Below, piece by piece: positions 2,399-60,137 of a stretch of 64,000 nt of DNA. Both the position numbers and the translations under genes were made by a program. Position 1 is the first letter of the stretch. Each line of letters opens with the position of its first letter. Source of the DNA: a virus (Duplodnaviria; Heunggongvirae; Uroviricota; Caudoviricetes); the IMG/VR virus record IMGVR_UViG_3300013902_000267; one strand, given 5' to 3'. The notes beneath the pieces were generated by a model, which saw only the letters and a program-made list of their open reading frames with translations, was not told the DNA's origin and made no database searches.

Positions 2399-2851
2399 AT
2401 GACAACAGGTGAATTAGACGAAATTGTAAAAGATATTATTAATATTTTTGGTAAACATATAAAGCTTGCAAGTTTATCAGAAAAATCATATGCAACAGGA
2501 CATGAAAATTATTATGATATAGTGTTTGAGAATACTACATCATTTACTTCACGAATGTTCGGTTATCAATATAGAAAGTTCCTTAATAATCTTGCAAGTT
2601 TAACTAATGGTGAAACAAGAAAAACAAATTCATATAAAGGATTTGTATATTATTGGTTTCCTGGATTTATTTACAAGAAAAATAATTTAAGAATTGAATT
2701 TGGAAGGAAAGGTTGGAATAGACATAGTGGTGATGATTCAACTACATGTTTTTATATGACGACTAATAACAAATATATTATTGAAGAAATTGTTAATAAT
2801 ATATTAAGAGATAGAGATATACGTATTTTAAAGAAGAATGATTATGAATAA
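2399..2851 (+). CDS. hypothetical protein (150 aa)
   Basis: Uninterrupted ORF, translationally coupled to its neighbours. Confidence 0.45.
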   Translation: MTTGELDEIVKDIINIFGKHIKLASLSEKSYATGHENYYDIVFENTTSFTSRMFGYQYRKFLNNLASLTNGETRKTNSYKGFVYYWFPGFIYKKNNLRIEFGRKGWNRHSGDDSTTCFYMTTNNKYIIEEIVNNILRDRDIRILKKNDYE

Positions 2852-3491
2852 TAAACCAACATTAGTTGTTCCAAAAGGCAGACTATATAAAGGAATTAAA
2901 CATATGTTTAATTTATGTAATATTGATATGCCTGATGAGAATACTAGACAATATTATTTCCCTGATTGGAGTGATGATTGTGCATTATTTATAGCAAAAC
3001 CTAAAGCAATACCAGAATTAATTGCAAGTAAATTCTGTGAATTCAGTATGTGCGGATATGATATTATAAAGAATAGTGAATATGAAAATGATATAGAGCT
3101 CATTAAACACACAGGACTAAATAGAGTAAAAGTATGTTTAGCTTCACGATATAATATTGATGAATTGTGTCATATGAATAAACCAGTTATTTGTGCCACA
3201 GAATTTGATGTGTTAGCAAATCATTATTTTACAAAATTAGGAATTCCACATTATATATTAAATACAGCAGGTTCAACAGAAGGATATATTGATATTGGTG
3301 CAGATTGTATTATTGATGTTGTAGAAACAGGGAAAACACTTAAAGAAAATAATATTAATATATTAGATACACTGATTGATACTGATACATGTATATTTGA
3401 ACATGCATCATTAATGGATGCAATGTTACCATCAAATATACAAATAATTTATGATCAATGGATTAATAAGACATGGGAAACGAGAATGTAA
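2838..3491 (+). CDS. ATP phosphoribosyltransferase (HisG)-like protein
   Basis: N-terminal LVVPKGRL resembles the HisG IAxPKGRL block. The C-terminal block TAGSTEGYIDIGADCIIDVVETGKTLKENNI closely matches the HisG PRPP-binding signature (SVElAPxxGlADAIvDLVsTGxTLxaNgL). Confidence 0.55.
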   Translation: MIMNNKPTLVVPKGRLYKGIKHMFNLCNIDMPDENTRQYYFPDWSDDCALFIAKPKAIPELIASKFCEFSMCGYDIIKNSEYENDIELIKHTGLNRVKVCLASRYNIDELCHMNKPVICATEFDVLANHYFTKLGIPHYILNTAGSTEGYIDIGADCIIDVVETGKTLKENNINILDTLIDTDTCIFEHASLMDAMLPSNIQIIYDQWINKTWETRM

Positions 3492-3934
3492 AATATATAG
3501 TAGAATTTGATGGTAATGATGGCACAGGAAAAACTTATACGATAAAAGTATTATCAAAAGTTTTTTCTAACTGTATTTTTATAGATAGAGGATTATTCAG
3601 TAAAGCAACATTGCTATCAGACGAAAATGATGAAATGTATAAGTATATTGATGATAATATTGATATGAATAGAATTTATATTATATTGGATGATTATCCA
3701 GAACATTGTCAAATGCTTATAAAAAGAAGAGGAGATTCTATTGAAGAGAAATATCATACAATAGAAGATTTAGAGTATTATCGTAAACAATTTACAAACT
3801 TATATGGTTATTGTTGTAAAAAGAATTATGATAATGTTTATTTAGTTACACGATTATTACCAGATCATGTTCAGGTAATGATTGATATTATTAAGAAATT
3901 TACTAATTTTAATAAGGAAAATAATAATGAGTAA
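3473..3934 (+). CDS. P-loop (deoxy)nucleoside monophosphate kinase-like protein
   Basis: Walker A motif EFDGNDGTGKTY is of the thymidylate-kinase type (xDGxxGxGKT). 153 aa. Confidence 0.45.
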   Translation: MGNENVKYIVEFDGNDGTGKTYTIKVLSKVFSNCIFIDRGLFSKATLLSDENDEMYKYIDDNIDMNRIYIILDDYPEHCQMLIKRRGDSIEEKYHTIEDLEYYRKQFTNLYGYCCKKNYDNVYLVTRLLPDHVQVMIDIIKKFTNFNKENNNE

Positions 3935-4577
3935 AATAATTATTGGTACCAGTAATCCAGGTAAGATTAGAGAAATTGCATCTATTCTTTCACCATTAGG
4001 ATATGAGATTGAACCGCATGCATTGGATGTTGATGAAACAGGAAAGACTATTAAAGATAATGCTATTATAAAAGCAAAAGCATATAGTAATGTATTTCCA
4101 GATACTTATGTTATTGCAGAAGATAGTGGATTAGTCGTTCCTAAATTGAATAATCTTCCTGGTCCGTATTCAGCAAGATTTCATGAAATTACAATAGATG
4201 ATAATTTGAATGTTATAAATGTTCCACATGAAGAATTTACTACGGATAAATCTGAACATGATAAACTTAATAATGAGAAGTTGTTGAAGTATATTAAAGA
4301 TATTCCGTTTGATGAGCGTGCAGCATATTTTGAAGTATGTTTTGTCATTGCAAAGAATGGAATTATTCAAGAAACATTTAGTGGTTATTCATATGGTTAT
4401 ATAGCAGATGAATTACGTGGAACAAATGGATTTGGTTATGATCCATTGTTTATTGGTGAGAATACATTTGGTAAGACATATGCAGAACTAGATTCTGCAA
4501 GAAAGAATTTAAAGAGTCACAGAAAGCAAGCATTGAAACAATTGGGCCTTTGGGTTTCACAGAATATAGAGAATTAA
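3927..4577 (+). CDS. non-canonical purine NTP pyrophosphatase (ITPase, Ham1/RdgB family)
   Basis: Start is ATG 3927 (MSKIIIGTSNPGK), overlapping the upstream stop. Family motifs present: TSNPGK, AEDSGL, PGPYSARF, GFGYDPLF, KSHR. Confidence 0.75.
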   Translation: MSKIIIGTSNPGKIREIASILSPLGYEIEPHALDVDETGKTIKDNAIIKAKAYSNVFPDTYVIAEDSGLVVPKLNNLPGPYSARFHEITIDDNLNVINVPHEEFTTDKSEHDKLNNEKLLKYIKDIPFDERAAYFEVCFVIAKNGIIQETFSGYSYGYIADELRGTNGFGYDPLFIGENTFGKTYAELDSARKNLKSHRKQALKQLGLWVSQNIEN

Positions 4578-4583
4578 TAATAT

Positions 4584-5075
4584 ATGAAGAAATTTATTTT
4601 TCCAGGTTCATTTGATCCTTTTACAAATGGGCATAAAGCAATAGTAGATCAGACATATAAATTGTGTGATGAATTTATTATAGCATTAGCGACAAACTTA
4701 AAGAAAGGAGAAGGACTTATTAAACGTCCTGAGCGTATTAAGTTAATTAAAGAGATTTTTAAAGATTATCCGAATGTAAAGGTAATTGATATGACAGATA
4801 CCTTGATTTCTGATTATTGTAAAAAGAATGGAGTTTCTTATATTGTTAGAGGTATCAGAAATTCGGAAGACTTTACATATGAAAAATCATTGGCAGCTAC
4901 TAACCATTATTTGGCAGGTGTAGAAACAATGTTGGTAATGGGTTTTTGCGAACCATATAATATTGATATTTCATCTACATTCGTTAGAGAATTGGTACAT
5001 TATAAATTACCTATTGGTGAGTTTGTTCCACCAGTTGTTGAACAATATATTAAAGATAATAATTTAACATGGTAA
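4584..5075 (+). CDS. phosphopantetheine adenylyltransferase (CoaD)-like class I nucleotidyltransferase
   Basis: FPGSFDPFTNGH is the PPAT-type (T/H)xGH motif. VRGIRNSEDFTYEKSLAATN matches the CoaD RGLRxxxDFEYE block. An NMN/NaMN adenylyltransferase role cannot be excluded. Confidence 0.6.
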   Translation: MKKFIFPGSFDPFTNGHKAIVDQTYKLCDEFIIALATNLKKGEGLIKRPERIKLIKEIFKDYPNVKVIDMTDTLISDYCKKNGVSYIVRGIRNSEDFTYEKSLAATNHYLAGVETMLVMGFCEPYNIDISSTFVRELVHYKLPIGEFVPPVVEQYIKDNNLTW

Positions 5076-5938
5076 ATAAGATTCAAGAAGAAGATTTAAA
5101 AGCAGTTGAGTATTGTAAAACTGTATTATATCCTAAATGGAATATCAAAGATTTGTATTCTATAGATTTTGATACATTTAGAAAAATGCCGTTGGTTGTA
5201 GAAGGTGAAAGTAAAGAGATACGTGCATTGGATGATGATTATTGTATCATTTATTTTAAACCTACAATTTATTCATTTACATATAATAGAACTGGTATTG
5301 TAGAAGGAAGTAATATTCCACGTGTTCATGTAAGTAAAGTATTGTGTGAGTTACTTAAAGAAAATGGTATTAAACATGCATATCTAGATTATGGTGATGA
5401 ATTTGTATTAGCACGCATAATTAAAGATACACCTAATATTGAAGTTGTTGTAAAAGCAAATCATACAGGTACAAGTAAACATAGATATTTTGGTATGGGT
5501 AAATCACATGTAAGAATGTCACATCCATATTATTCGGGAATGAAAATTAAAGACATGGAACCATATCCAGCACCTATTGTAAGATTTGATTGGCGAAATC
5601 CATTTTGGGAACCAAATACACATAAGATGTTAGCTGATGAAGTTATGTGCGATGATCAAGCAGATTATTATATTGATGTTAAGAAAGCAAAGAAAACTGC
5701 AGCACTAACATTCAGTGTATTAAGTGATTTTCTTGCAAGTAAAGATATTGTTATTTATGATTTGTGTTTGTTTATATCAGAAGATGGTGAAACAGTATAT
5801 GGAGAAATTTCACCAGATTGTGGAAGATATAGACATTATGATTTAGGAAGTCTTGATAAGGATGTATGGCGTGCAGGAGGTTCATCAGATCAGGTATTGG
5901 AGAAGTGGAATTTACTGTATAAAATGATTACACAATAA
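5069..5938 (+). CDS. SAICAR synthetase (PurC)-like protein
   Basis: Colinear matches to PurC blocks: VVEGESKEIRALDDD (GKxKxVY...D), VVVKANHTGTSKHRYFG (VVRNRAAGSLVKRLG), and IYDLCLFISEDGETVYGEISPDCGRY (DFKLEFG...GDEFSPDxSR). Confidence 0.55.
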   Translation: MVNKIQEEDLKAVEYCKTVLYPKWNIKDLYSIDFDTFRKMPLVVEGESKEIRALDDDYCIIYFKPTIYSFTYNRTGIVEGSNIPRVHVSKVLCELLKENGIKHAYLDYGDEFVLARIIKDTPNIEVVVKANHTGTSKHRYFGMGKSHVRMSHPYYSGMKIKDMEPYPAPIVRFDWRNPFWEPNTHKMLADEVMCDDQADYYIDVKKAKKTAALTFSVLSDFLASKDIVIYDLCLFISEDGETVYGEISPDCGRYRHYDLGSLDKDVWRAGGSSDQVLEKWNLLYKMITQ

Positions 5939-8109: not shown

Positions 8110-9580
8110 TATTAAAGAAAATAATTTTTTCATTCCTAGAAAAATTGCTGTAGGATTTGTAAAAAGAGCAAATACATATTCAGGAAAGTTATCTTATATT
8201 ACTTATTATGATAATACTAATAAATTACGTAAGGACGTATCTTGGAATGGTTGGAGAGATAAAAATATAGAACCTGTATATACGGATAATATTCCAACAA
8301 CAGGTTTTATTATTAATAAACGTGCAGGAGGCGAAAAATGGGGATGGAACCAAAGAGCAACATATGCGCGTATATATGATCCAAGAGGGTTTGAATTTGA
8401 GATAACTATAGATAATCTTCTTTGGATTCTGGAATATACTAATTCAGAAAACAAGGAATTAAAAGGACAATTTGTATATAGTTGGTATGGAACTGAACTT
8501 GTACTTATGCCTATTGTTTCATCTGATTATGAAGAATCTAAACGTTTATCTGAACAACAATATAATAAAACATCGTTTAAAGAACGCGATTTAATTCCTG
8601 GAACACTTTATAAAATGAAAGGTAAGGAATTAAATGAATTGGTATATATTGGTAAAGTAAAAGTATCTACTGAATTCAATATGTCTTATGTTAATAAATT
8701 AGCATTTGTACCTATACAGGATTCTTGGAAGTTATATTCACATTATGATAAAAATATCAACAGATCTGATTTCTTTATATTTAAAAGTGTTTCGTCTGTT
8801 ATAGCAGAAATGCAACAAAATTATTTTAGTGACGATATTGTAAAAGAATATCTACATAGATTTGATATGTGCGCGTATTCATATAATTTCTGGAATAATT
8901 TTGGTAATTTCATTGATAAATTTGTTTCTGACCATCCATGTATAATGAATGATTATAAAAAACCATATAAGATAGAATATAATAGATATAGCACAGAGAA
9001 GAATAATTATAATAATATTATTGATAAATTCGAATATAATGGTATAAAGTTAGATTCATTAAGAATTATTCCTGAATGGTTAATCCAAACAGACAGAGAA
9101 CACATATTTTATGAAAATACAAGTGTATTAAAATCAGTTATATCCGATGATGGTAAATCCGTATTGATAAAAGATCAATATCCTACTATAGAAAAGATTA
9201 ATACATTTAATAGGATTGTATATAAACGAATGTATGATTTCATGAATATTGATTTAAATACAAATACATTTAATAAAATATGTGATCCCGGATTGTGGGA
9301 TGAATATAGAGGTCATCATTCTTGCGAAGTATCAAATATTATATATAAGCATCCATCAGAAACTACAGATGTTCAGAAAGCAAGAGAAATTAATACTCAG
9401 GTTTCATTAAATGATAACAGAACATTCTTATATTATATAACGAAGGATAATTATATATCTATATCATTACAGGAAATGATACGGAATCATCGTTATATGA
9501 AATTCGGTTTCTCGAATGGTATAGATGAGAATAAATGGGTAACATTAGATGTAATATTGTTACCAAAAAAGATTAAGTAA
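8102..9580 (+). CDS. hypothetical protein (492 aa)
   Basis: Long uninterrupted ORF with no in-frame TAG. Confidence 0.5.
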   Translation: MNNIKENNFFIPRKIAVGFVKRANTYSGKLSYITYYDNTNKLRKDVSWNGWRDKNIEPVYTDNIPTTGFIINKRAGGEKWGWNQRATYARIYDPRGFEFEITIDNLLWILEYTNSENKELKGQFVYSWYGTELVLMPIVSSDYEESKRLSEQQYNKTSFKERDLIPGTLYKMKGKELNELVYIGKVKVSTEFNMSYVNKLAFVPIQDSWKLYSHYDKNINRSDFFIFKSVSSVIAEMQQNYFSDDIVKEYLHRFDMCAYSYNFWNNFGNFIDKFVSDHPCIMNDYKKPYKIEYNRYSTEKNNYNNIIDKFEYNGIKLDSLRIIPEWLIQTDREHIFYENTSVLKSVISDDGKSVLIKDQYPTIEKINTFNRIVYKRMYDFMNIDLNTNTFNKICDPGLWDEYRGHHSCEVSNIIYKHPSETTDVQKAREINTQVSLNDNRTFLYYITKDNYISISLQEMIRNHRYMKFGFSNGIDENKWVTLDVILLPKKIK

Positions 9581-9601
9581 TTTTTTTATTTCAAAATAAT
9601 T

Positions 9602-9624
9602 ATGTATCTTTGTATTGTTAATAA
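9602..9624 (+). promoter_or_regulatory. conserved 23-nt promoter-like motif ATGTATCTTTGTATTGTTAATAA
   Basis: Near-identical copies lie upstream of at least four other genes in the window. It contains TATCTTTG, which matches the Bacteroidetes sigma-A -7 consensus TAnnTTTG. It sits 34 nt upstream of ATG 9658. Confidence 0.5.
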
Positions 9625-9657
9625 ACAAAAAGTATAAACAATTAAAAATATATAATT

Positions 9658-10149
9658 ATGGCAACAAATAAAAAGAATACAGTTAAGAAGTATATGCTTT
9701 CCCAAAATTTACCTTTTGGTAATTTAAAAGCAGGCATGATTTTCTCTTATGATACTATTACAAAAACTGCGGTATTTCCAAATGGACAAGAGATCTCACC
9801 ATTTGATGTAACAGATAAGAATTTCGTTAAGTCTGTCGCAGATGTAAAGTTTAATGTAGGTGATTGTGTCATTTATCATACACGATTGTATAAGATTACT
9901 GATATTAACTATGTAACAGGTCGTTGTAAGCTTTTAGAGTTTTACGCAAATAAAGAGGTTGATTTTGTAAGTCATTCTGTATTGACAGCAGCACAAGTTT
10001 ATTGGTTTGTTAATTCGTCTGGAACTGTTTCATCATCATATATTGGCAAACAACCAGATGCAGACTTATGGAGAGCAAAAACAAAGAACATGTTTAATAC
10101 CAAGGAGGAGTGTCAGAAGTATAAGAATATTGTTCTTAAAAGTAAATAA
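9658..10149 (+). CDS. hypothetical protein (163 aa)
   Basis: Uninterrupted ORF preceded by the conserved promoter motif and followed by a hairpin. Confidence 0.5.
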   Translation: MATNKKNTVKKYMLSQNLPFGNLKAGMIFSYDTITKTAVFPNGQEISPFDVTDKNFVKSVADVKFNVGDCVIYHTRLYKITDINYVTGRCKLLEFYANKEVDFVSHSVLTAAQVYWFVNSSGTVSSSYIGKQPDADLWRAKTKNMFNTKEECQKYKNIVLKSK

Positions 10150-53368: not shown

Positions 53369-53413
53369 ATTATATCAATTAGTTTTCATTTATAATTATA
53401 CAGTAAAAATAAA

Positions 53414-53884
53414 TCATTGTTTAATAGATTTTAACGAAATTAATGTAGTTCCAGATAAATCTATTAAATCTTTTTCTTTTGATGAAAAATCTAATATATG
53501 TTGTGTATGAGTTTCTTTAATTATACCATCGTTTTCCTATATAGGTTCAGGTTCAATTAAATAAGATAACTATTCATTATTATCTTTTTTATGTATCATA
53601 TATAATGTATTCTGTTCTAACGCATCTTCTATTGAAAGTTCTTTAGTTGAACCATCAGCAAAATATGTTACGCTTGGTATTGGTGCATCTAAATCATAAT
53701 ACGTCTAAATAATATCATATTTAGACGTATCTATATCATTTATACTTTTAATATTAGTTAAATCATCTTCATCATTATTTTCATCTACAATATCTGACGT
53801 AATATCATTAACTCCTGTAAATTTTACTAATAGACAAAGAATAACAAAAAAACCTATACTTATTGATATTACTGGATCTATCAT
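53414..53884 (-). CDS. N-terminally membrane-anchored acidic protein (156 aa), 3 in-frame TAG, absent from the ORF track
   Basis: MIDPVISISIGFFVILCLLVKF..., then an acidic region. Continuous frame from ATG 53884 to TGA 53414-53416. Confidence 0.45.
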
Positions 53885-53913
53885 AATCTCTTATTTTATT
53901 AAATTAATAATTA

Positions 53914-54147
53914 TTATTTACTCTCAAAATTAATAGTTGATACATCTTCCACTTTTTCTTTTAAACTATCAACTGTTATTGTATGTGTATTCTGTTGCTC
54001 TTGTAATGAGTCTACAATGAATTCCTGTGTTTGCTTAATATGCTTTAGCTTCTCTTCATAATCAATACGGAGACGATTTGCAATTACAAGCATCATTATA
54101 AATCCTAATACAAATAAAACAATAAATACTGTTACTATTATATTCAT
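53914..54147 (-). CDS. small membrane protein (77 aa)
   Basis: N-terminal TM helix. Confidence 0.45.
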   Translation of the reverse strand: MNIIVTVFIVLFVLGFIMMLVIANRLRIDYEEKLKHIKQTQEFIVDSLQEQQNTHTITVDSLKEKVEDVSTINFESK

Positions 54148-54264
54148 ATTATTTTCTAATTAAAATTTTACTTTTTATTTATAGTATATTAAATCAATAA
54201 AGTTTATATATTAAAATAAAAAATGGATAGATAGTTAAACGAAAAAACTATCTATCCATCATAA

Positions 54265-55302
54265 TTATGCTTGATACGAATACTTGTCAAACAATGATTC
54301 AATATTAGAGGGATGCACAGCATTTATGCCGATTTCATTGCATTTTTTCAATGTATCATGGAAATCATCTATAAGACATACATCCTTAACATTCCACTTC
54401 ATTTTATGAGCAAACTGCTCAATAAAAACGTGCTTATAATTTTTATTTCCGACAAACATTCGGTTCTCAACAGGAATCTCTGGGAAATATTTATCAAGCC
54501 ATTCATTCTTCTCATTCCACGCTATTGAATTAGCACATGCAGTCACAATATAAACATTCTTCATGTCATAATGTTTCTTAACAAAATCAATGATATGTTT
54601 AACAGGCTTCAAATTTTTAAATAGTTCGCTACTTACAAAATCTGAATTTCCGTTAATATCAAGTTTTGCCTTGCCATAACAAGCTAATGTACCATCCATG
54701 TCAAGAAGTAAATACTTATTGGTAAAATAATCAACGCGAATGAATTCATCTACCAATGGGATGTACTTATTCTTACATGCTTCAATACGTAAATTTTTCT
54801 TATAAATATCTTCAATTGGAACTTTACGAGTTCTTCCTTGAAGTCTATTTATACAAACTTCTACAGGAGTATCAAAGAATATACAAGTAATCTTATCTAC
54901 ATTTTTATTTCTTAAATAATCTATAATACTAAGATTATAATGATTATTAATTCCACCGCCGTCAAGAATAACATTACAATTAATCTTTGAACTATCTGCA
55001 ATAGCAAAAATTATTTTTCGTGTTATTTGAACCGACTCTTCATGAACAACTTCCGGATGTTCATCAGTATAACCTTTTAACAATGGTTTAATTTCATCAG
55101 CAGAAATTACTATTGTTTCATTTATACAAAGATTATCTTCAATTGTCTGAATAATTTTATCTAAATTACATTCATCAAATGGTTTATCTAAAATAGATGT
55201 TAACCATTCAATGAGATGCAAAATATTTGGATAATTCTCTTGAAGATATGTACTTTTACCAGATGCAGGCAAACCGAGGAAGTACGAGAACTTACTGATC
55301 AT
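54265..55302 (-). CDS. P-loop kinase fused to HAD phosphatase (polynucleotide kinase-phosphatase-like)
   Basis: N-terminal Walker A GLPASGKST, as in T4 Pnk GCPGSGKST or NadR-type kinases. C-terminal LLLDMDGTLA is the HAD motif I DxDGT. Domain order matches T4 PseT. Confidence 0.55.
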   Translation of the reverse strand: MISKFSYFLGLPASGKSTYLQENYPNILHLIEWLTSILDKPFDECNLDKIIQTIEDNLCINETIVISADEIKPLLKGYTDEHPEVVHEESVQITRKIIFAIADSSKINCNVILDGGGINNHYNLSIIDYLRNKNVDKITCIFFDTPVEVCINRLQGRTRKVPIEDIYKKNLRIEACKNKYIPLVDEFIRVDYFTNKYLLLDMDGTLACYGKAKLDINGNSDFVSSELFKNLKPVKHIIDFVKKHYDMKNVYIVTACANSIAWNEKNEWLDKYFPEIPVENRMFVGNKNYKHVFIEQFAHKMKWNVKDVCLIDDFHDTLKKCNEIGINAVHPSNIESLFDKYSYQA

Positions 55303-55327
55303 AACTAAAATATAATTTAATTTTTAA

Positions 55328-56911
55328 TTAGTCAACAGTTCCATCAAGAAGTTTATGAACTGCATCTTGACGAGTCTTTCGGATTTCAGCAAGTGTAAAC
55401 TCTCTTACTAACTTACCATCTTCAAAAACAGTCTTCAATTCATTCTTATCTGATGCTTCCTCTTCAGGCGTTACACGATCAACTGGTACATACTTACCAT
55501 TACCATCTTTTACAACCATAAGAAGTCCACGATGTGATTTCTTTGGCATACCGCATACTGTTTTAGGATCCTTATAAATTTCTATAGGTTTGCCATTAAC
55601 TTTACACCATGTAGACTTACAGGCTATGCCTAAAGAATCTCTGGATCGTACATTATAAGTAAAGCTTCCTATACCTTCAATAAGGTTAGTTGCTGCGAAA
55701 CCCTTATCTTCAAGTTGAGAATATGTATCCTTTTGGCGTTTCATATTAATTGAGTCTCCATAAAGAAGTCCAATATGTGGATCAAGAATTTTATATCCTT
55801 TTTCATTAAATGTTCCACCGAACGTATTCCAAAGAAATTCATAAGAACCCATCTTTACAAATGGATCTTCTGCTTCCGGATCACCACAAATAATTTTAAC
55901 AGGATCACCACTATCAGGACGAATTACTACACGCCCATTACGAGACATAATTTGTTCTTTATACTTAGGAACAATCTTTGTCAAGAAATACCAATAATCA
56001 TAACCATCTGCAACAATTGAAATAATACCATCTGGAAATTCATCAAGCATATTCTTAAAATAAACTTCATCATTTGGCTTACCTGTTTCATCTGTTGCAT
56101 TAGAGCACTCAATAGAATGTTCAGTAGCTGGAACAGTTGCAGCTATCAATTCTTTTTTAGGATCTGCATTATAATAATACTCAATCATCTTAATTGCTGG
56201 AACTGTTTCAGAACCACAAAAAGAAGTAAGATGTGCCATACCAGAAACAATAGATGCTTCAAATGAACTCATTCCTCTCATAGAGAAATCATGACATAGA
56301 AATGCAAGATTAGACATATCGTTAGGATTATAAAAACCAGTTTTCATAGCATGTCTAACAAGTTCACGTTTAAATACATCAGCTGTTGTTGCAGAAGTAA
56401 TTGGAAGCCAAAGGACATTTGAAGTCAAAGACTCCAAATAATTTGTGAGCCAAGCAAAATCAGGATGTGTATTTGTGATTGTTAAAATAGGGCATCCGAT
56501 TGGACAATATGAACCTTCAGGAAGTGCCTTAATACGAATAGGAAGATAACCAAGTTTATGCAATGCAATAATATGATCAACCCCTACTTTCTTTGCAACT
56601 GCTTCTCCTAGAAATGTAGTTGTCAAATCTGTATAAGTTTTTCGTACAGTATCTTCATCAAGATTAAAGAAATAATTATTAAATGTATTAATAAGATACT
56701 TCTTAATAAAATACTGAATACCAAACACAACTGCTCCCTCTGTAGCTTCCGGAAAATATTTATTACTACGAGGAGTAAAGTTACTGAAAAGTTGCGTCAT
56801 TCCCTTAGGGTACATACAGTGATGACCAAGCTTGTAGCCATCTGTCATAAGCATTGCATTAAGAAGTATGTCTTCTACCAATACATGCTGTGAATCTTTT
56901 ACGTTTGTCAT
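55328..56911 (-). CDS. nadV: nicotinamide phosphoribosyltransferase (NAMPT/NadV family)
   Basis: 527 aa with TDGYKLGHH, HDFSMRG, RPDSGD and GYDYWY-type blocks colinear with NAMPT. Confidence 0.75.
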   Translation of the reverse strand: MTNVKDSQHVLVEDILLNAMLMTDGYKLGHHCMYPKGMTQLFSNFTPRSNKYFPEATEGAVVFGIQYFIKKYLINTFNNYFFNLDEDTVRKTYTDLTTTFLGEAVAKKVGVDHIIALHKLGYLPIRIKALPEGSYCPIGCPILTITNTHPDFAWLTNYLESLTSNVLWLPITSATTADVFKRELVRHAMKTGFYNPNDMSNLAFLCHDFSMRGMSSFEASIVSGMAHLTSFCGSETVPAIKMIEYYYNADPKKELIAATVPATEHSIECSNATDETGKPNDEVYFKNMLDEFPDGIISIVADGYDYWYFLTKIVPKYKEQIMSRNGRVVIRPDSGDPVKIICGDPEAEDPFVKMGSYEFLWNTFGGTFNEKGYKILDPHIGLLYGDSINMKRQKDTYSQLEDKGFAATNLIEGIGSFTYNVRSRDSLGIACKSTWCKVNGKPIEIYKDPKTVCGMPKKSHRGLLMVVKDGNGKYVPVDRVTPEEEASDKNELKTVFEDGKLVREFTLAEIRKTRQDAVHKLLDGTVD

Positions 56912-57106
56912 AAAATAATTTGTTTAAATTTTAATTTGATTACAATAATAATTTGTTTGTTTAATTATCTTGTAATCATTATTTATATATATTATTAATT
57001 AAATTGTTTATAAAATTCATATTAAAAAAATAACATCCTATTTTCACAAACAAGATGTTAATAATTCAAAGACATATTTATTTGAAAATTAAGTTGCGAA
57101 ATTAAT

Positions 57107-57652
57107 TTATGCAGCCTGTCGAACTTCCCAATCAATAATATCAACAACATACTTTTCTTTGTTGATAGAAATTGACTTAATATTTTTAAGTGAAAGTGTT
57201 CTATACTCAATAACAGAAGTACTTGCCTTTTTCTTTGGCATGAATCTCTTCATATACACTTCATCTTCTGCAGAAATCTTCTCACCATTAAGAATAATAT
57301 TATTCTTTGAATAATTATTAGGAATGTAAATCAAACATACATTACCTGTACTAATATATTGCATAACAACATTCTTTACAAGATGACGGCGATTTGTATC
57401 TGTTGCCTTATAATCCTCACCAAGAATCTTACTCATTGTCTTTTCATAATCCTGTCCAAAATGGAAAGTAACTGAGAAATCTGTGCGTGGTTGAAATCCA
57501 TCCTTAATATGTTCCTTAGGAAGACCATCTGTATTAAACTTATTCAACTTAATATCAGACTCACCATATACAGTGACATACTTACCGTTGCACTTTGCGT
57601 TAGACATAAGCTCGATAAACTCATCTACTGTTGTAATAATATTGTTGTTCAT
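57107..57652 (-). CDS. hypothetical protein (181 aa)
   Basis: Uninterrupted ORF with the conserved promoter motif 36 nt upstream. Confidence 0.5.
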   Translation of the reverse strand: MNNNIITTVDEFIELMSNAKCNGKYVTVYGESDIKLNKFNTDGLPKEHIKDGFQPRTDFSVTFHFGQDYEKTMSKILGEDYKATDTNRRHLVKNVVMQYISTGNVCLIYIPNNYSKNNIILNGEKISAEDEVYMKRFMPKKKASTSVIEYRTLSLKNIKSISINKEKYVVDIIDWEVRQAA

Positions 57653-57687
57653 ATTCTTTATATTTTTAATTGTTCAACTTAATTGTT

Positions 57688-57710
57688 TTATTAACAATAC
57701 AAAGATACAT
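57688..57710 (-). promoter_or_regulatory. conserved promoter motif (minus-strand ATGTATCTTTGTATTGTTAATAA)
   Basis: Identical to the copy at 9602-9624. TTTG lies 17 nt upstream of TAtcTTTG. Confidence 0.5.
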
Positions 57711-57888
57711 GTTTTATTTCAAATAAAAAAATATTAGAAGAAAAAATTAAATATTTTCTCTTAAAAATTTATCGATAAGTTTTTTAACACTATTACATTT
57801 ATATTGTGTTTCTACATAACTACCTGTCCAATCAGTATGAACATGAAAATTCTCAAGAAACCAGTTTGCAATCTTTTCTTTATCCATA

Positions 57889-58188
57889 TCAATAATCTTC
57901 TGCATCTCGTGAAACTCTCATATTCTTTAAATCATTAATGAGTTTTTCACACTCTTTTAACAATACATATATAGTAGAAATAATTATCACTATAATAAAT
58001 AATAATATTCCTAATGCTATATAAAACCCTGAATCTTCATAATTAGAAATAAACTTAAAACATGTAATTATATATGTAAAAGTAAATGGTATTACTAAAC
58101 ATAAAATCCAATTTATTATATGTCTCCATACATGTTTCTCTATATATTCGTTTCTCTCTTTATGTGATTTAAACCATTTATTTTCCAT
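57889..58188 (-). CDS. membrane protein (99 aa)
   Basis: Two TM helices. Confidence 0.45.
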   Translation of the reverse strand: MENKWFKSHKERNEYIEKHVWRHIINWILCLVIPFTFTYIITCFKFISNYEDSGFYIALGILLFIIVIIISTIYVLLKECEKLINDLKNMRVSRDAEDY

Positions 58189-59147: not shown

Positions 59148-60137
59148 CTATGTTTCCTCATCAGCTTTTAATTTTGGATATGCAGCTCTAAGTATCTGTA
59201 ATACACGTGTTTCTGTCATTCCATGTTCTTCTGCAACTTGCCATGTATTCTTTTCACCACGTCCATTAATACCATAGCAATCACATACAATTTCACCATC
59301 TCTTTCACCAAGAACTCTCTTTACATTATCTTCAAGTTCTCTTTCAAGATCAGCGTTATTAAGATTACTATCAGGGTCTTTAAATGTCCTATTAGCTGTT
59401 ACATCACCTAATGTTGTTTTAGAATCATCATCATCCCCGTATGATTTATCCAAACTATTTGCACGTGTATTTGCTTCCATTGTTTGTGCAAATGTTTCAT
59501 ATTTCAAATCTGGATGTTTCTTTACGAGAACATTATAAATATCATCAATATCAGGTTCATAACCATTCTTATTATATAATTGATCCTTGATACGAGCGGC
59601 TTCACGAGCAATACTACCCATATTACGGGGAACTGCCATATGTCCACCTACCTCATCAACAGCAGTCATAATTTCTCTACGAATATACCAAATAGCATAA
59701 GAAACAAAACGTACATCTTTACCTGGCAAACTTGGATCATATGTATCTGCTGCTTGCATAAGTCCTATATTTCCATATTGAATCATATCTTCCTTTGGTA
59801 TATTAATATTTTTATACTTATTGACAACAGAAATAACAAATGGAAGATTTGCGGACACCAACTTATTCTTTGCCTTTTCAATTTCTCTCTTATTATCAGA
59901 ATGTTGAATAATATCAGCAAGTTTCACTTCATCTGCATGTGATAATTGTTTTTTCTTATTAATAGCATGTAAATATGCAATAGTAGACTTTGCTGTATTT
60001 TCATCCTGTGTAATAGCAAAATCATCATGCAAATCCATATGCATTCCATTATTAGCTTCATTGAGTTTCTTTCTAATAGTCTTAGAAACATTTCTCATGA
60101 TACTTTCATACAATGTCTTCTTTTCATTTAACTTCAT
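59148..60137 (-). CDS. sigma-70 family RNA polymerase sigma factor
   Basis: Region 2: LPFVISVVNKYKNI...QYGNIGLMQAADTYDP...RFVSYAIWYIRREI. Region 4 HTH: TWQVAEEHGMTETRVLQILRAA. Confidence 0.7.
   Translation of the reverse strand: MKLNEKKTLYESIMRNVSKTIRKKLNEANNGMHMDLHDDFAITQDENTAKSTIAYLHAINKKKQLSHADEVKLADIIQHSDNKREIEKAKNKLVSANLPFVISVVNKYKNINIPKEDMIQYGNIGLMQAADTYDPSLPGKDVRFVSYAIWYIRREIMTAVDEVGGHMAVPRNMGSIAREAARIKDQLYNKNGYEPDIDDIYNVLVKKHPDLKYETFAQTMEANTRANSLDKSYGDDDDSKTTLGDVTANRTFKDPDSNLNNADLERELEDNVKRVLGERDGEIVCDCYGINGRGEKNTWQVAEEHGMTETRVLQILRAAYPKLKADEET

Follow-up and report, generated by a model that had tools for sequence, protein, structure and literature searches.

The 64,000-nucleotide stretch of viral DNA analysed here (IMG/VR record IMGVR_UViG_3300013902_000267; below, the window) is from a giant phage of the gut, a Prevotella Lak megaphage, essentially Lak-B7 (MK250026.1), with which it shares 99.6% DNA identity. 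Two neighbouring genes of the window, at positions 54265-56911, code for a 527-amino-acid (aa) transferase of the NAMPT family and for a 345-aa protein, designated kinHAD, in which a P-loop kinase domain is followed by a HAD phosphatase domain. With a probability of about 0.7, this locus is one half of a dispersed NARP1 of the Lak megaphage, NARP1 (NAD+ reconstitution pathway 1) being the combination of Adps and Namat (Osterman et al. 2024, bioRxiv 10.1101/2024.02.11.579819; structures in PMC12774641). Direct support comes from family and clade membership, from catalytic residues that are intact in all four proteins, from an Adps gene in the genome and from the conserved linkage of the genes. 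The Adps gene itself, as well as the genes for a small HAD-like protein, a NadR-like/PnuC pair and a canonical polynucleotide kinase-phosphatase (Pnkp), was located outside the window in Lak-B7, the closest complete genome.

In the mechanism proposed, host immune NADases with SIR2, TIR or SEFIR domains would cut NAD+, leaving ADP-ribose (ADPR) plus nicotinamide, phage Adps would pyrophosphorylate the ADPR to ADPR-PP, and the 527-aa Namat-type enzyme would join ADPR-PP and nicotinamide to NAD+ in one step. The kinHAD protein is probably a dedicated accessory of NARP1 with a substrate-conditioning role, neither a bystander nor the RNA-repair Pnkp of the phage; the analogy is with Adpp, a Macro-domain phosphatase, and RyDEP, a glycosidase, which likewise extend NARP1. 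The first-pass annotation had seen in the pair a possible NAD+-restoring counter-defence locus to which the kinase/HAD neighbour belongs, and this part was retained; its NadV-type Nampt in need of a nicotinamide mononucleotide (NMN) adenylyltransferase (NMNAT) was replaced by an enzyme of the Namat clade.

Namat-type transferase and its distant Adps partner

Both genes were confirmed, separated by a gap of 25 bp, and the full-length NAMPT homolog expected beside the P-loop-kinase/HAD protein was found with exact coordinates (Table 1) and family matches far beyond chance. The two proteins are 100% identical to their Lak-B7 counterparts, and the gene pair is kept in Lak clades A and C at ~80% protein identity. 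Each open reading frame (ORF) ends with TAA and has an in-frame TAA just upstream. The codon TAG, reportedly recoded in Lak phages, occurs inside neither frame, so that the recoding leaves the ORF boundaries unchanged.

The 527-aa protein matched the Pfam families NAPRTase (3.6e-31) and NAMPT_N (4.2e-10), NCBIfam PRK09198 (489.9 bits; cut-off 405) and PHROG 448, "nicotinamide phosphoribosyl transferase" (3e-176). In a sequence search of the entire PDB, the highest scores were obtained for 9W5X/9W5W (459 bits, against 206 for human NAMPT and 191 for Xanthomonas Nampt), 9W5X/9W5W being the Namat of SPbetaL1, i.e., the nicotinamide ADP-ribose transferase of NARP1 (PMC12774641). Where Nampt has the motifs DFG-x-RG, QGD-G and G-x-GGGLLQ-x-x-TRD, those of the Lak protein read DFSMRG, YGDS and GIGSFTYNVRSRD; alignment with context-labelled sequences identified its DFSMRG, YGDS and GIGSFTY as Namat-type markers, and T4-like NadV and human NAMPT carry DFGxRG, QGDG and GxGGGLL at the same places. 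Neighbour-joining trees of 15 and 87 sequences placed the protein inside the Adps-linked clade, and both the trees and four sequence markers separated it from T4-like NadV plus human NAMPT. Among 2,045 phage records, identity to the Lak protein was bimodal, with 33-47% for known NARP1 carriers (Staphylococcus Kayvirus, ICP1, Felixounavirus and mycobacteriophages) and 27-30% for T4-like phages, and of the 80 IMG/VR loci most similar to it, 72 have an Adps homolog adjoining the Namat homolog. A human NAMPT sequence served only as reference and outgroup, and a T4 Pnkp sequence only as search probe; all conclusions depending on either were re-derived from database sequences. Judged by these comparisons, the 527-aa enzyme belongs to the Namat clade of NARP1, and its expected donor would be ADPR-PP.

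The residue roles established for SPbetaL1 Namat (PMC12774641) allowed the active site to be compared position by position (D13'/Y15', F189, R192, D215, the catalytic His in ATEHS, R306 and D308). The Nampt-like catalytic core is present in the Lak protein, with DGYK, HDFSMRG, PATEHS containing the catalytic His, and RPDSGD; the sole core change, from SPbetaL1 Asp215 to the Glu of GSETVP, is conservative and common to the whole crAss/Lak subclade. The adenine selectivity clamp is less uniform. Its helix is defined in Namat as GSXΦXΦXΦTRD, in which X is "most often" aromatic (PMC12774641). The Lak helix, GSFTYNVRSRD, has the Namat-type GS-F-T-Y start with a fitting Phe at position 3, and it keeps Arg and Asp; at position 7, Val replaces Tyr396 of SPbetaL1, the second adenine-stacking aromatic, and Ser replaces Thr398. 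Arg40 in the SPbetaL1 clamp loop stacks on adenine and is salt-bridged to Asp400 (PMC12774641); in the Lak loop, which is two residues longer, Lys is aligned to it.

The Lak Adps homolog is 47% identical to the Adps beside the Namat of crAss phage cr111_1 and 29.5% identical to SPbetaL1 Adps, and falls far under the curated cut-offs for genuine phosphoribosyl pyrophosphate (PRPP) synthetases. It keeps F18, R87, H121, D161, K185, D212, D213, C215, D216 and F221, for which a functional role was shown with the structure of ICP1 Adps (PMC13586617). As a separate observation, the 547-position profile phrog_12872 is matched by Lak Adps at positions 7-221 and by Lak Namat at positions 376-537; this two-part match implies that natural Adps-Namat fusion proteins exist in phages.

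The first-pass annotation had noted that the window contains no obvious NMNAT, and none is present in it, nor was an NMNAT/Nudix gene found beside the Lak Namat gene; an NMNAT was found elsewhere in Lak-B7. Since NARP1 yields NAD+ directly, such an enzyme is not required. The candidate suggested for the role, the phosphopantetheine adenylyltransferase (PPAT)-like ORF, is a real gene (CTP_transf_like, 6.5e-17), which reached 132.5 bits on the CoaD equivalog TIGR01510 (cut-off 103.3). Its best NMNAT-type score was 44.5 bits against a cut-off of 112.45, below every NMNAT cut-off. These curated cut-offs and the Ham1-, HisG- and SAICAR-synthetase-like neighbours, which make up a different nucleotide-metabolism cluster, led us to reject it as the absent NMNAT. 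By its domains, the NadR-like protein of Lak-B7 is a true NMNAT: it combines an NMNAT with an AAA_28 ribosylnicotinamide kinase (AAA_28, 1.9e-15), has no helix-turn-helix domain, and is directly followed by PnuC (TIGR01528, 129.5 bits; cut-off 42.45). This is the arrangement of NARP3, and Lak would therefore stack a split NARP1 and a NARP3-like pair, with no fewer than two NAD+-restoring systems in one genome.

The Namat-like features have to be weighed against canonical salvage by a Nampt/NadV enzyme, similar to NARP2, in which nicotinamide and PRPP would give NMN, and the PPAT-like or NadR-like protein would adenylylate it. The passed PRK09198 equivalog, the presence of all shared Nampt catalytic residues, the loss of one adenine-clamp aromatic and the NadR-like NMNAT encoded in Lak-B7 are all compatible with this scheme, and SPbetaL1 Namat itself keeps about half of the NMN-forming activity of human Nampt in vitro (PMC12774641). 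However, the tree and four markers alike put the enzyme with Namat, the genome encodes an Adps whose catalytic constellation is intact, the PPAT-like gene qualifies as a CoaD equivalog and stays far under the cut-offs for NMNAT, and the NadR-like gene is paired with PnuC ~160 kb away in the NARP3 arrangement, so that salvage as the main function is improbable. Because Namat retains NMN synthesis in vitro, NadV-type salvage could be a side activity, which is compatible with NARP1.

The kinase/HAD protein and its linkage to NARP1 genes

The kinase domain of kinHAD carries the Walker A motif GLPASGKST (residues 10-18) and the phosphatase domain the HAD motif I DMDGT (201-205). In Pfam, NT5C was matched above its cut-off (1.7e-7) and AAA_33 just below (2e-5); the HAD domain also matched PDB 3BWV (6.7e-5), and the PF26880/T5 dNMPase family was listed for homologs. 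A total of 133 homologs was found, nearly all with the same two-domain architecture. In a 39-sequence alignment, K16 of Walker A, D69, K72, the D114-G-G-G-I-N-N segment and R153/R157/R159 followed by VP were invariant or nearly so in the kinase domain, as were D201-x-D203, K290 and D312-D313 in the HAD domain; given these invariant catalytic residues, both active sites look functional.

The closest structural relative of kinHAD is T4 Pnkp, the best Foldseek match of an AlphaFold2 model of high confidence (pLDDT 92.7, pTM 0.88), at a sequence identity of 16-17%. The family profile matched the kinase domain of Clostridium thermocellum Pnk (CthPnk, 4GP7) with 6.6e-10 and T4 Pnkp (1LTQ) with 6e-9, and equivalents of the T4 kinase residues K15, D35, R38 and R126 are present: D69 and K72 align to D35 and R38, the lid arginines align to R122 and R126, and D69 is the putative general base. 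The PNKP-type HAD domain (PF25109) was not found in kinHAD, its match being NT5C, and on phrog_505 it scored 47 bits.

The fused family is rare, with ~35 full-length clusters at 50% identity and 52 matches at E <= 1e-30 among 1.84 billion representatives; a search of 50,697 phage records found it in the 15 Lak genomes and in one further phage, Lbo-JY46 of Leptolyngbya, a cultured cyanophage, and nowhere else. Its association with NARP1 is strict. In all 13 informative contexts, kinHAD homologs with 30-66% identity lie within ~1.6 kb of a Namat gene, and Adps was detected nearby in 12 of them, the exception being L021, where the contig ends ~1.2 kb downstream; L023, whose contig ends 1 kb upstream of the kinHAD gene, was left out as uninformative. 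Gene order varies and 4-bp overlaps are frequent (Table 1), and the contexts come from gut, marine (Tara) and other metagenomes and from cultured Lbo-JY46. As NARP1 occurs in only ~4% of phages, 13 linked cases out of 13, with variable order and frequent overlaps, are not a coincidence. At the same time, kinHAD is present in only 2 of the 80 nearest Namat loci and is thus a rare accessory. The larger kinHAD-Namat spacing in L064 and Lbo-JY46 is due to inserted homing-endonuclease-like genes, namely L064:8368-9351 on the minus strand (T5orf172/DUF723) and L162:7792-8271 in Lbo-JY46, an apparent HNH-type gene, judged by eye.

At the clamp position equivalent to Tyr396, 9 of 12 kinHAD-linked Namats have no aromatic residue (but V, L, M, C or an insertion), as against 2 of 76 unlinked ones. 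Fisher's exact test, calculated before Lbo-JY46 was added (9/11 vs 2/76) and without phylogenetic correction, gave 6e-9. The kinHAD-linked Namats form four lineages on the tree, in which Lbo-JY46 was not placed, with at least two independent losses of the clamp aromatic, and the covariation of this residue with the presence of kinHAD is only suggestive.

Could kinHAD simply be a second Pnkp, which heals RNA or DNA ends (e.g., those of tRNA cut by an anticodon nuclease) and lies near Namat by the clustering of counter-defence genes? Its highest-ranking matches in sequence and in structure (T4 Pnkp, Clostridium thermocellum Pnk and Pnkp1), the invariant equivalents of T4 K15, D35, R38 and R126 and the T4-like domain order would agree with this, as would the RNA ligase of the window and the RNA ligase/RlaP genes within 4-5 kb in L065, L066 and L159. 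The window RNA ligase is 34% identical to the one located 4.5 kb from the NARP1/kinHAD cluster of L065. However, Lak-B7 has a separate canonical Pnkp, which weakens the plain polynucleotide kinase reading and excludes kinHAD as the only Pnkp of the phage; near its kinHAD gene, L156 likewise has a separate gene with a HAD_PNKP domain, truncated where the locus ends. Moreover, the HAD domain is NT5C/T5-dNMPase-like and not PF25109, the motif D-x-T-N of polynucleotide kinases is replaced by DGGGINN, and the 13-of-13 linkage, with overlapping frames and variable order, is to Namat/Adps and not to RNA ligase. A second Pnkp is consequently unlikely. The DGGGINN segment was judged closer to the EGTG motif of zeta toxins than to D-x-T-N.

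The other proposal for the kinase, a nicotinamide riboside (NR)-type activity, was rejected: no AAA_28 match was obtained and no NRK was among the top structural matches, and a NadR-like protein is encoded elsewhere in Lak. Very improbable, finally, is a nucleotide-pool enzyme without relation to ADPR chemistry, either a (d)NMP kinase with 5'(3')-nucleotidase or an NR-kinase/NMN-nucleotidase, as might be read from the NT5C match, the T5 dNMPase family in homologs and weak matches to UMP-CMP and adenylate kinases, because the kinase fold and the invariant Asp base fit hydroxyl kinases (PNK, zeta toxin, PSTK) and not nucleoside monophosphate kinases, there is no AAA_28/NRK signal while the genome already has the NadR-like ribosylnicotinamide kinase, and the strict NARP1 linkage would be left unexplained.

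As an accessory of NARP1, kinHAD would condition non-canonical phosphorylated breakdown products of NAD(P)+ or ADPR-derived molecules. The HAD domain would strip a phosphate from a substrate such as 2'-phospho-ADPR (from NADP+), a 3'-phosphorylated species or ADPR-1''-phosphate, so that the product enters the Adps/Namat route, and the kinase domain would phosphorylate a sugar hydroxyl, either restoring NADP+ or neutralising an ADPR-based signal. The logic of Pnkp, which heals both ends, is a parallel for the combination of phosphatase and kinase. Precedent for a kinase acting on NAD+ is found in AvrRxo1, which phosphorylates its 3'-OH. The substrates of the two domains are putative, and any specific chemistry named here is doubtful. 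We consider it possible, though tentative, that the kinHAD fusion is a so far undescribed extension of NARP1 against a kind of NAD(P)+ depletion or ADPR signalling that plain NARP1 cannot reverse, and that the co-varying loss of the clamp Tyr reflects an altered donor.

Several observations weigh against a dispersed NARP1 with kinHAD as its accessory. Namat and Adps lie ~225 kb apart in Lak, and their co-regulation cannot be assumed at such a distance; the Adps gene and the NadR-like/PnuC pair come from Lak-B7 and not from the window itself. Lak Namat departs from the published signature at four positions (Tyr396 to Val, Arg40 to Lys, Thr398 to Ser and Asp215 to Glu), and its donor preference could differ accordingly; the clamp correlation rests on approximately two independent losses and is phylogenetically weak. 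By sequence and by structure, kinHAD has its best relatives among true polynucleotide kinases, and RNA ligase genes are located 4-11 kb away in several of its contexts, so a nucleic-acid substrate is possible for this protein.

Small HAD, Macro-domain Adpp and the surroundings of the locus

The 151-aa HAD-like protein directly upstream of Lak Adps corresponds to phrog_1238, mis-named "phosphoheptose isomerase", and is present in ~31 of the 80 related IMG/VR Namat loci, where it usually fills the slot that separates Namat from Adps. Homologs of the Macro-domain protein Adpp are present in 9 of the 80 loci, four of them in the same slot in sister phages: in L097, L103, L117 and L134 vs L110, this slot (~9550-10040) holds either an Adpp homolog or the small HAD. 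The two never co-occur across all 80 loci, and no Adpp homolog was found among the ORFs of Lak-B7 or in 12 kinHAD loci. The shared slot and the lack of co-occurrence suggest that the small HAD is a non-homologous replacement for the ADPR-1''-phosphate phosphatase of the Adpp type known from NARP1-AP; aRES, the system countered by Adpp, is present in 4.7% of Bacteroidota genomes. The joint occurrence of kinHAD and the small HAD in L019, L158 and Lak makes separate roles for the two probable. The idea that the HAD domain of kinHAD is a copy of the small HAD was rejected, since BLASTP gave no significant similarity between them.

In L158 (ENA contig k141_28896), genes for HAD_SAK_2 and for a Tad2-like protein, a member of the Thoeris anti-defence sponge family, lie at 3609-4359, directly upstream of the Namat-kinHAD-small HAD-Adps array, and in L159 a NADAR-domain gene is located 1.3 kb downstream of kinHAD. 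Both loci look like NAD/ADPR-centred counter-defence islands.

Around the Lak gene pair, the stretch just downstream of kinHAD contains two small ORFs (59 and 77 aa; window 53705-54147, minus strand), the N-termini of which are hydrophobic and may span a membrane, and small hydrophobic ORFs are also found within the NARP1/kinHAD clusters of L065 and L066. Just upstream of Namat is a 181-aa ORF (57107-57652, minus strand), conserved in Lak A, B and C, the sole match of which, a weak one, was a SwaI-like endonuclease (E 0.004). When positions 53400-58000 were scanned for sigma-70 promoters, shuffled sequence contained more promoter-like sites than the phage DNA, and no intrinsic terminator was found in the same interval; these scans are uninformative on operon boundaries in this Bacteroidota phage. 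The window also encodes a sigma-70-family factor with detectable regions 2, 3 and 4 (59148-60137, minus strand). The coding strand and the GC skew switch sign at ~20000 and ~62000, the skew being positive over 1-20 kb, negative over 20-62 kb and positive past 62 kb. The Ham1-family protein of the nucleotide-metabolism cluster invites the speculation that a phage ITPase could degrade dITP, which is the signal in Kongming, a system that depletes NAD+ (PMC12774641).

Table 1 Features of the locus, related genes of Lak-B7 and genomic contexts of kinHAD homologs (L-numbers are our locus handles; percentages in brackets are identities of the kinHAD homolog; positions refer to the window unless stated otherwise)
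Feature or locus	Position	Strand	Basis or remark
Predicted Namat-type nicotinamide (ADP-)ribosyl transferase, NAMPT-family, 527 aa	55328..56911	-	Family matches, PDB scores, clade
Selectivity-clamp loop region TPRSNKYFPEA, residues 46-56	56744..56776	-	
Catalytic core motifs HDFSMRG (207-213), GSETVP (233-238), PATEHS (261-266), RPDSGD (331-336)	55904..56293	-	
Selectivity-clamp helix motif GIGSFTYNVRSRD, residues 413-425	55637..55675	-	Alignment
kinHAD, Pnkp-like bifunctional protein, 345 aa	54265..55302	-	Probable conserved accessory of NARP1 operons
N-terminal P-loop kinase domain, ~residues 1-190	54733..55302	-	Invariant columns and profile alignment
C-terminal HAD phosphatase domain, ~residues 195-345, NT5C/T5-dNMPase-like	54265..54720	-	Pfam, PDB, invariant residues
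RNA ligase, 503 aa	42044-43555	-	PF09414, phrog_968
HisG-like ATP phosphoribosyltransferase	2838-3491	+	
Ham1-family ITP/XTP pyrophosphatase	3882-4577	+	
CoaD-type PPAT	4584-5075	+	
SAICAR-synthetase-like protein	5069-5938	+	
Adps homolog	Lak-B7 L011:27730-28599 (~B7 419.7 kb)		~225 kb away from the Namat/kinHAD pair
Small HAD-like protein, 151 aa	Within Lak-B7 L011:27239-28599 (~B7 419.2-420.6 kb)		FDFDNT motif; directly upstream of Adps
Canonical T4-type Pnkp	Lak-B7 L012:41917-42858	-	PF25109 HAD_PNKP 89.4 bits; phrog_505 198.7 bits
NadR-like protein (385 aa) and PnuC	Lak-B7 L004:31849-33655 (~B7 31.8-33.7 kb)		~160 kb from the window locus
L019 (66%)			Single four-gene array: Namat, kinHAD, small HAD, Adps
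L021 (38%)			Namat overlaps kinHAD; no Adps detected
L022/L065 (P0089, 37%)			Adps, 82-aa ORF, kinHAD ... Namat
L066 (P0091, 37%)			Adps overlaps kinHAD, 91-aa ORF, Namat
L068 (P0095, 35%)			Adps, Namat, kinHAD
L070 (P0083, 45%)			Namat overlaps kinHAD, Adps
L156 (P0078, 46%)			kinHAD, Namat, Adps; separate HAD_PNKP-domain gene nearby
L157 (P0013, 58%)			Namat, kinHAD ... Adps
L158 (P0022, 55%)			HAD_SAK_2, Tad2-like, Namat, kinHAD, small HAD, Adps
L159 (P0099, Tara, 35%)			Adps, Namat, two small ORFs, kinHAD; a NADAR-domain gene close by
Lbo-JY46 (30%)			Namat-like and Adps-like genes, with kinHAD 1.4 kb upstream
Lak A, B and C clades			Namat, kinHAD; Adps ~225 kb off in Lak-B7

Relation to known systems and significance

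With the NARP1 described so far, the Lak genes share a Namat-clade transferase with a Nampt-like core and the Namat-type start of the clamp helix, an Adps with conserved residues in the same genome, and the expected function, in which NAD+ would be rebuilt from ADPR and nicotinamide. They differ in that the two core genes do not form one operon, the clamp lacks its second aromatic and carries the other substitutions given above, and the neighbourhood includes a gene for a Pnkp-like kinase/HAD protein, which the described systems do not have. NARP1-AP, i.e., NARP1 plus the Macro-domain ADPR-1''-phosphate phosphatase Adpp (bioRxiv 10.64898/2026.01.28.702374), is similar in that the added phosphatase genes presumably make a non-canonical product of NAD+ breakdown usable as a substrate; however, the additions in Lak are of the HAD fold (the small HAD by Adps and the kinase/HAD protein by Namat), with no Macro-domain homolog, and the predicted kinase activity of kinHAD has no counterpart in NARP1-AP. 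In the RyDEP-extended NARP1 of mycobacteriophage DyoEdafos (bioRxiv 10.64898/2026.05.28.727677), an accessory enzyme that feeds NARP1 is likewise inserted in its operon, but this enzyme is a RyR-domain glycosidase acting on cyclic ADPR signals, with a fold and chemistry unrelated to those of kinHAD.

NARP2, the NadV Nampt plus NMNAT/Nudix of Vibrio phage KVP40, has in common with the Lak locus the enzyme superfamily and the use of nicotinamide, whereas T4-like NadV is only 27-30% identical and forms a separate clade, and an NMNAT/Nudix gene does not accompany the Lak gene. NARP3 consists of PnuC and a NadR-like protein (Sci Adv 2026, PMC13464706); the same succession, a NadR-like protein (NMNAT plus AAA_28 kinase) and directly then PnuC, exists in Lak-B7, but this pair belongs neither to the window nor to the Namat/kinHAD locus. 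T4 Pnkp (1LTQ, 2IA5) agrees with kinHAD in the kinase-then-HAD order, the K15/D35/R38/R126 equivalents and the DxDxT phosphatase motif, and is distinguished from it by the low identity, the NT5C-like HAD of kinHAD and its DGGGINN acceptor-site motif, by the partnership of kinHAD with NARP1 rather than with RNA ligase, and by the separate canonical Pnkp in the same genome. Small-molecule kinases of the zeta-toxin/AvrRxo1 type phosphorylate UDP-N-acetylglucosamine or the 3'-OH of NAD+; they differ from kinHAD, the kinase of which is fused to a phosphatase and has no toxin-antitoxin context.

NARP1, NARP1-AP, RyDEP, NARP2 and NARP3 are thus known. For the kinHAD accessory, the clamp covariation, the small HAD/Macro exchange and the split and stacked Lak layout, no description was found in the literature searched, and neither was a published link of Namat/Adps to a polynucleotide kinase or HAD accessory. 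Table S1 of the aRES preprint, which lists NARP1 neighbours, contains Macro-domain neighbours only, and in a paper about the NAD+ genes of gut jumbo phages, NAMPT genes of this kind are taken for ordinary salvage enzymes, with no mention of NARP or the kinHAD neighbour. For annotation, phage genes named "NAMPT" or "PRPP synthetase" should not be taken as canonical salvage enzymes.

NAD+ depletion is among the commonest bacterial antiviral strategies, and the earlier NARP1 accessories, Adpp and RyDEP, each exposed new host chemistry. In kinHAD, two apparently intact active sites are combined with tight linkage to Namat, and almost always to Adps, in gut, marine and cyanobacterial-host phages, and the cultured carrier Lbo-JY46 makes the protein directly testable. 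If the proposed role is true, kinHAD would predict a host mode of depletion or signalling, as Adpp pointed to aRES; the products of such a mode may be 2'- or 3'-phosphorylated ADPR or NAD species, with the phosphatase domain unblocking a breakdown product and the kinase domain restoring or inactivating a phosphorylated species. The stacked NAD+ strategies in Lak would bear on the persistence of these megaphages in Prevotella.

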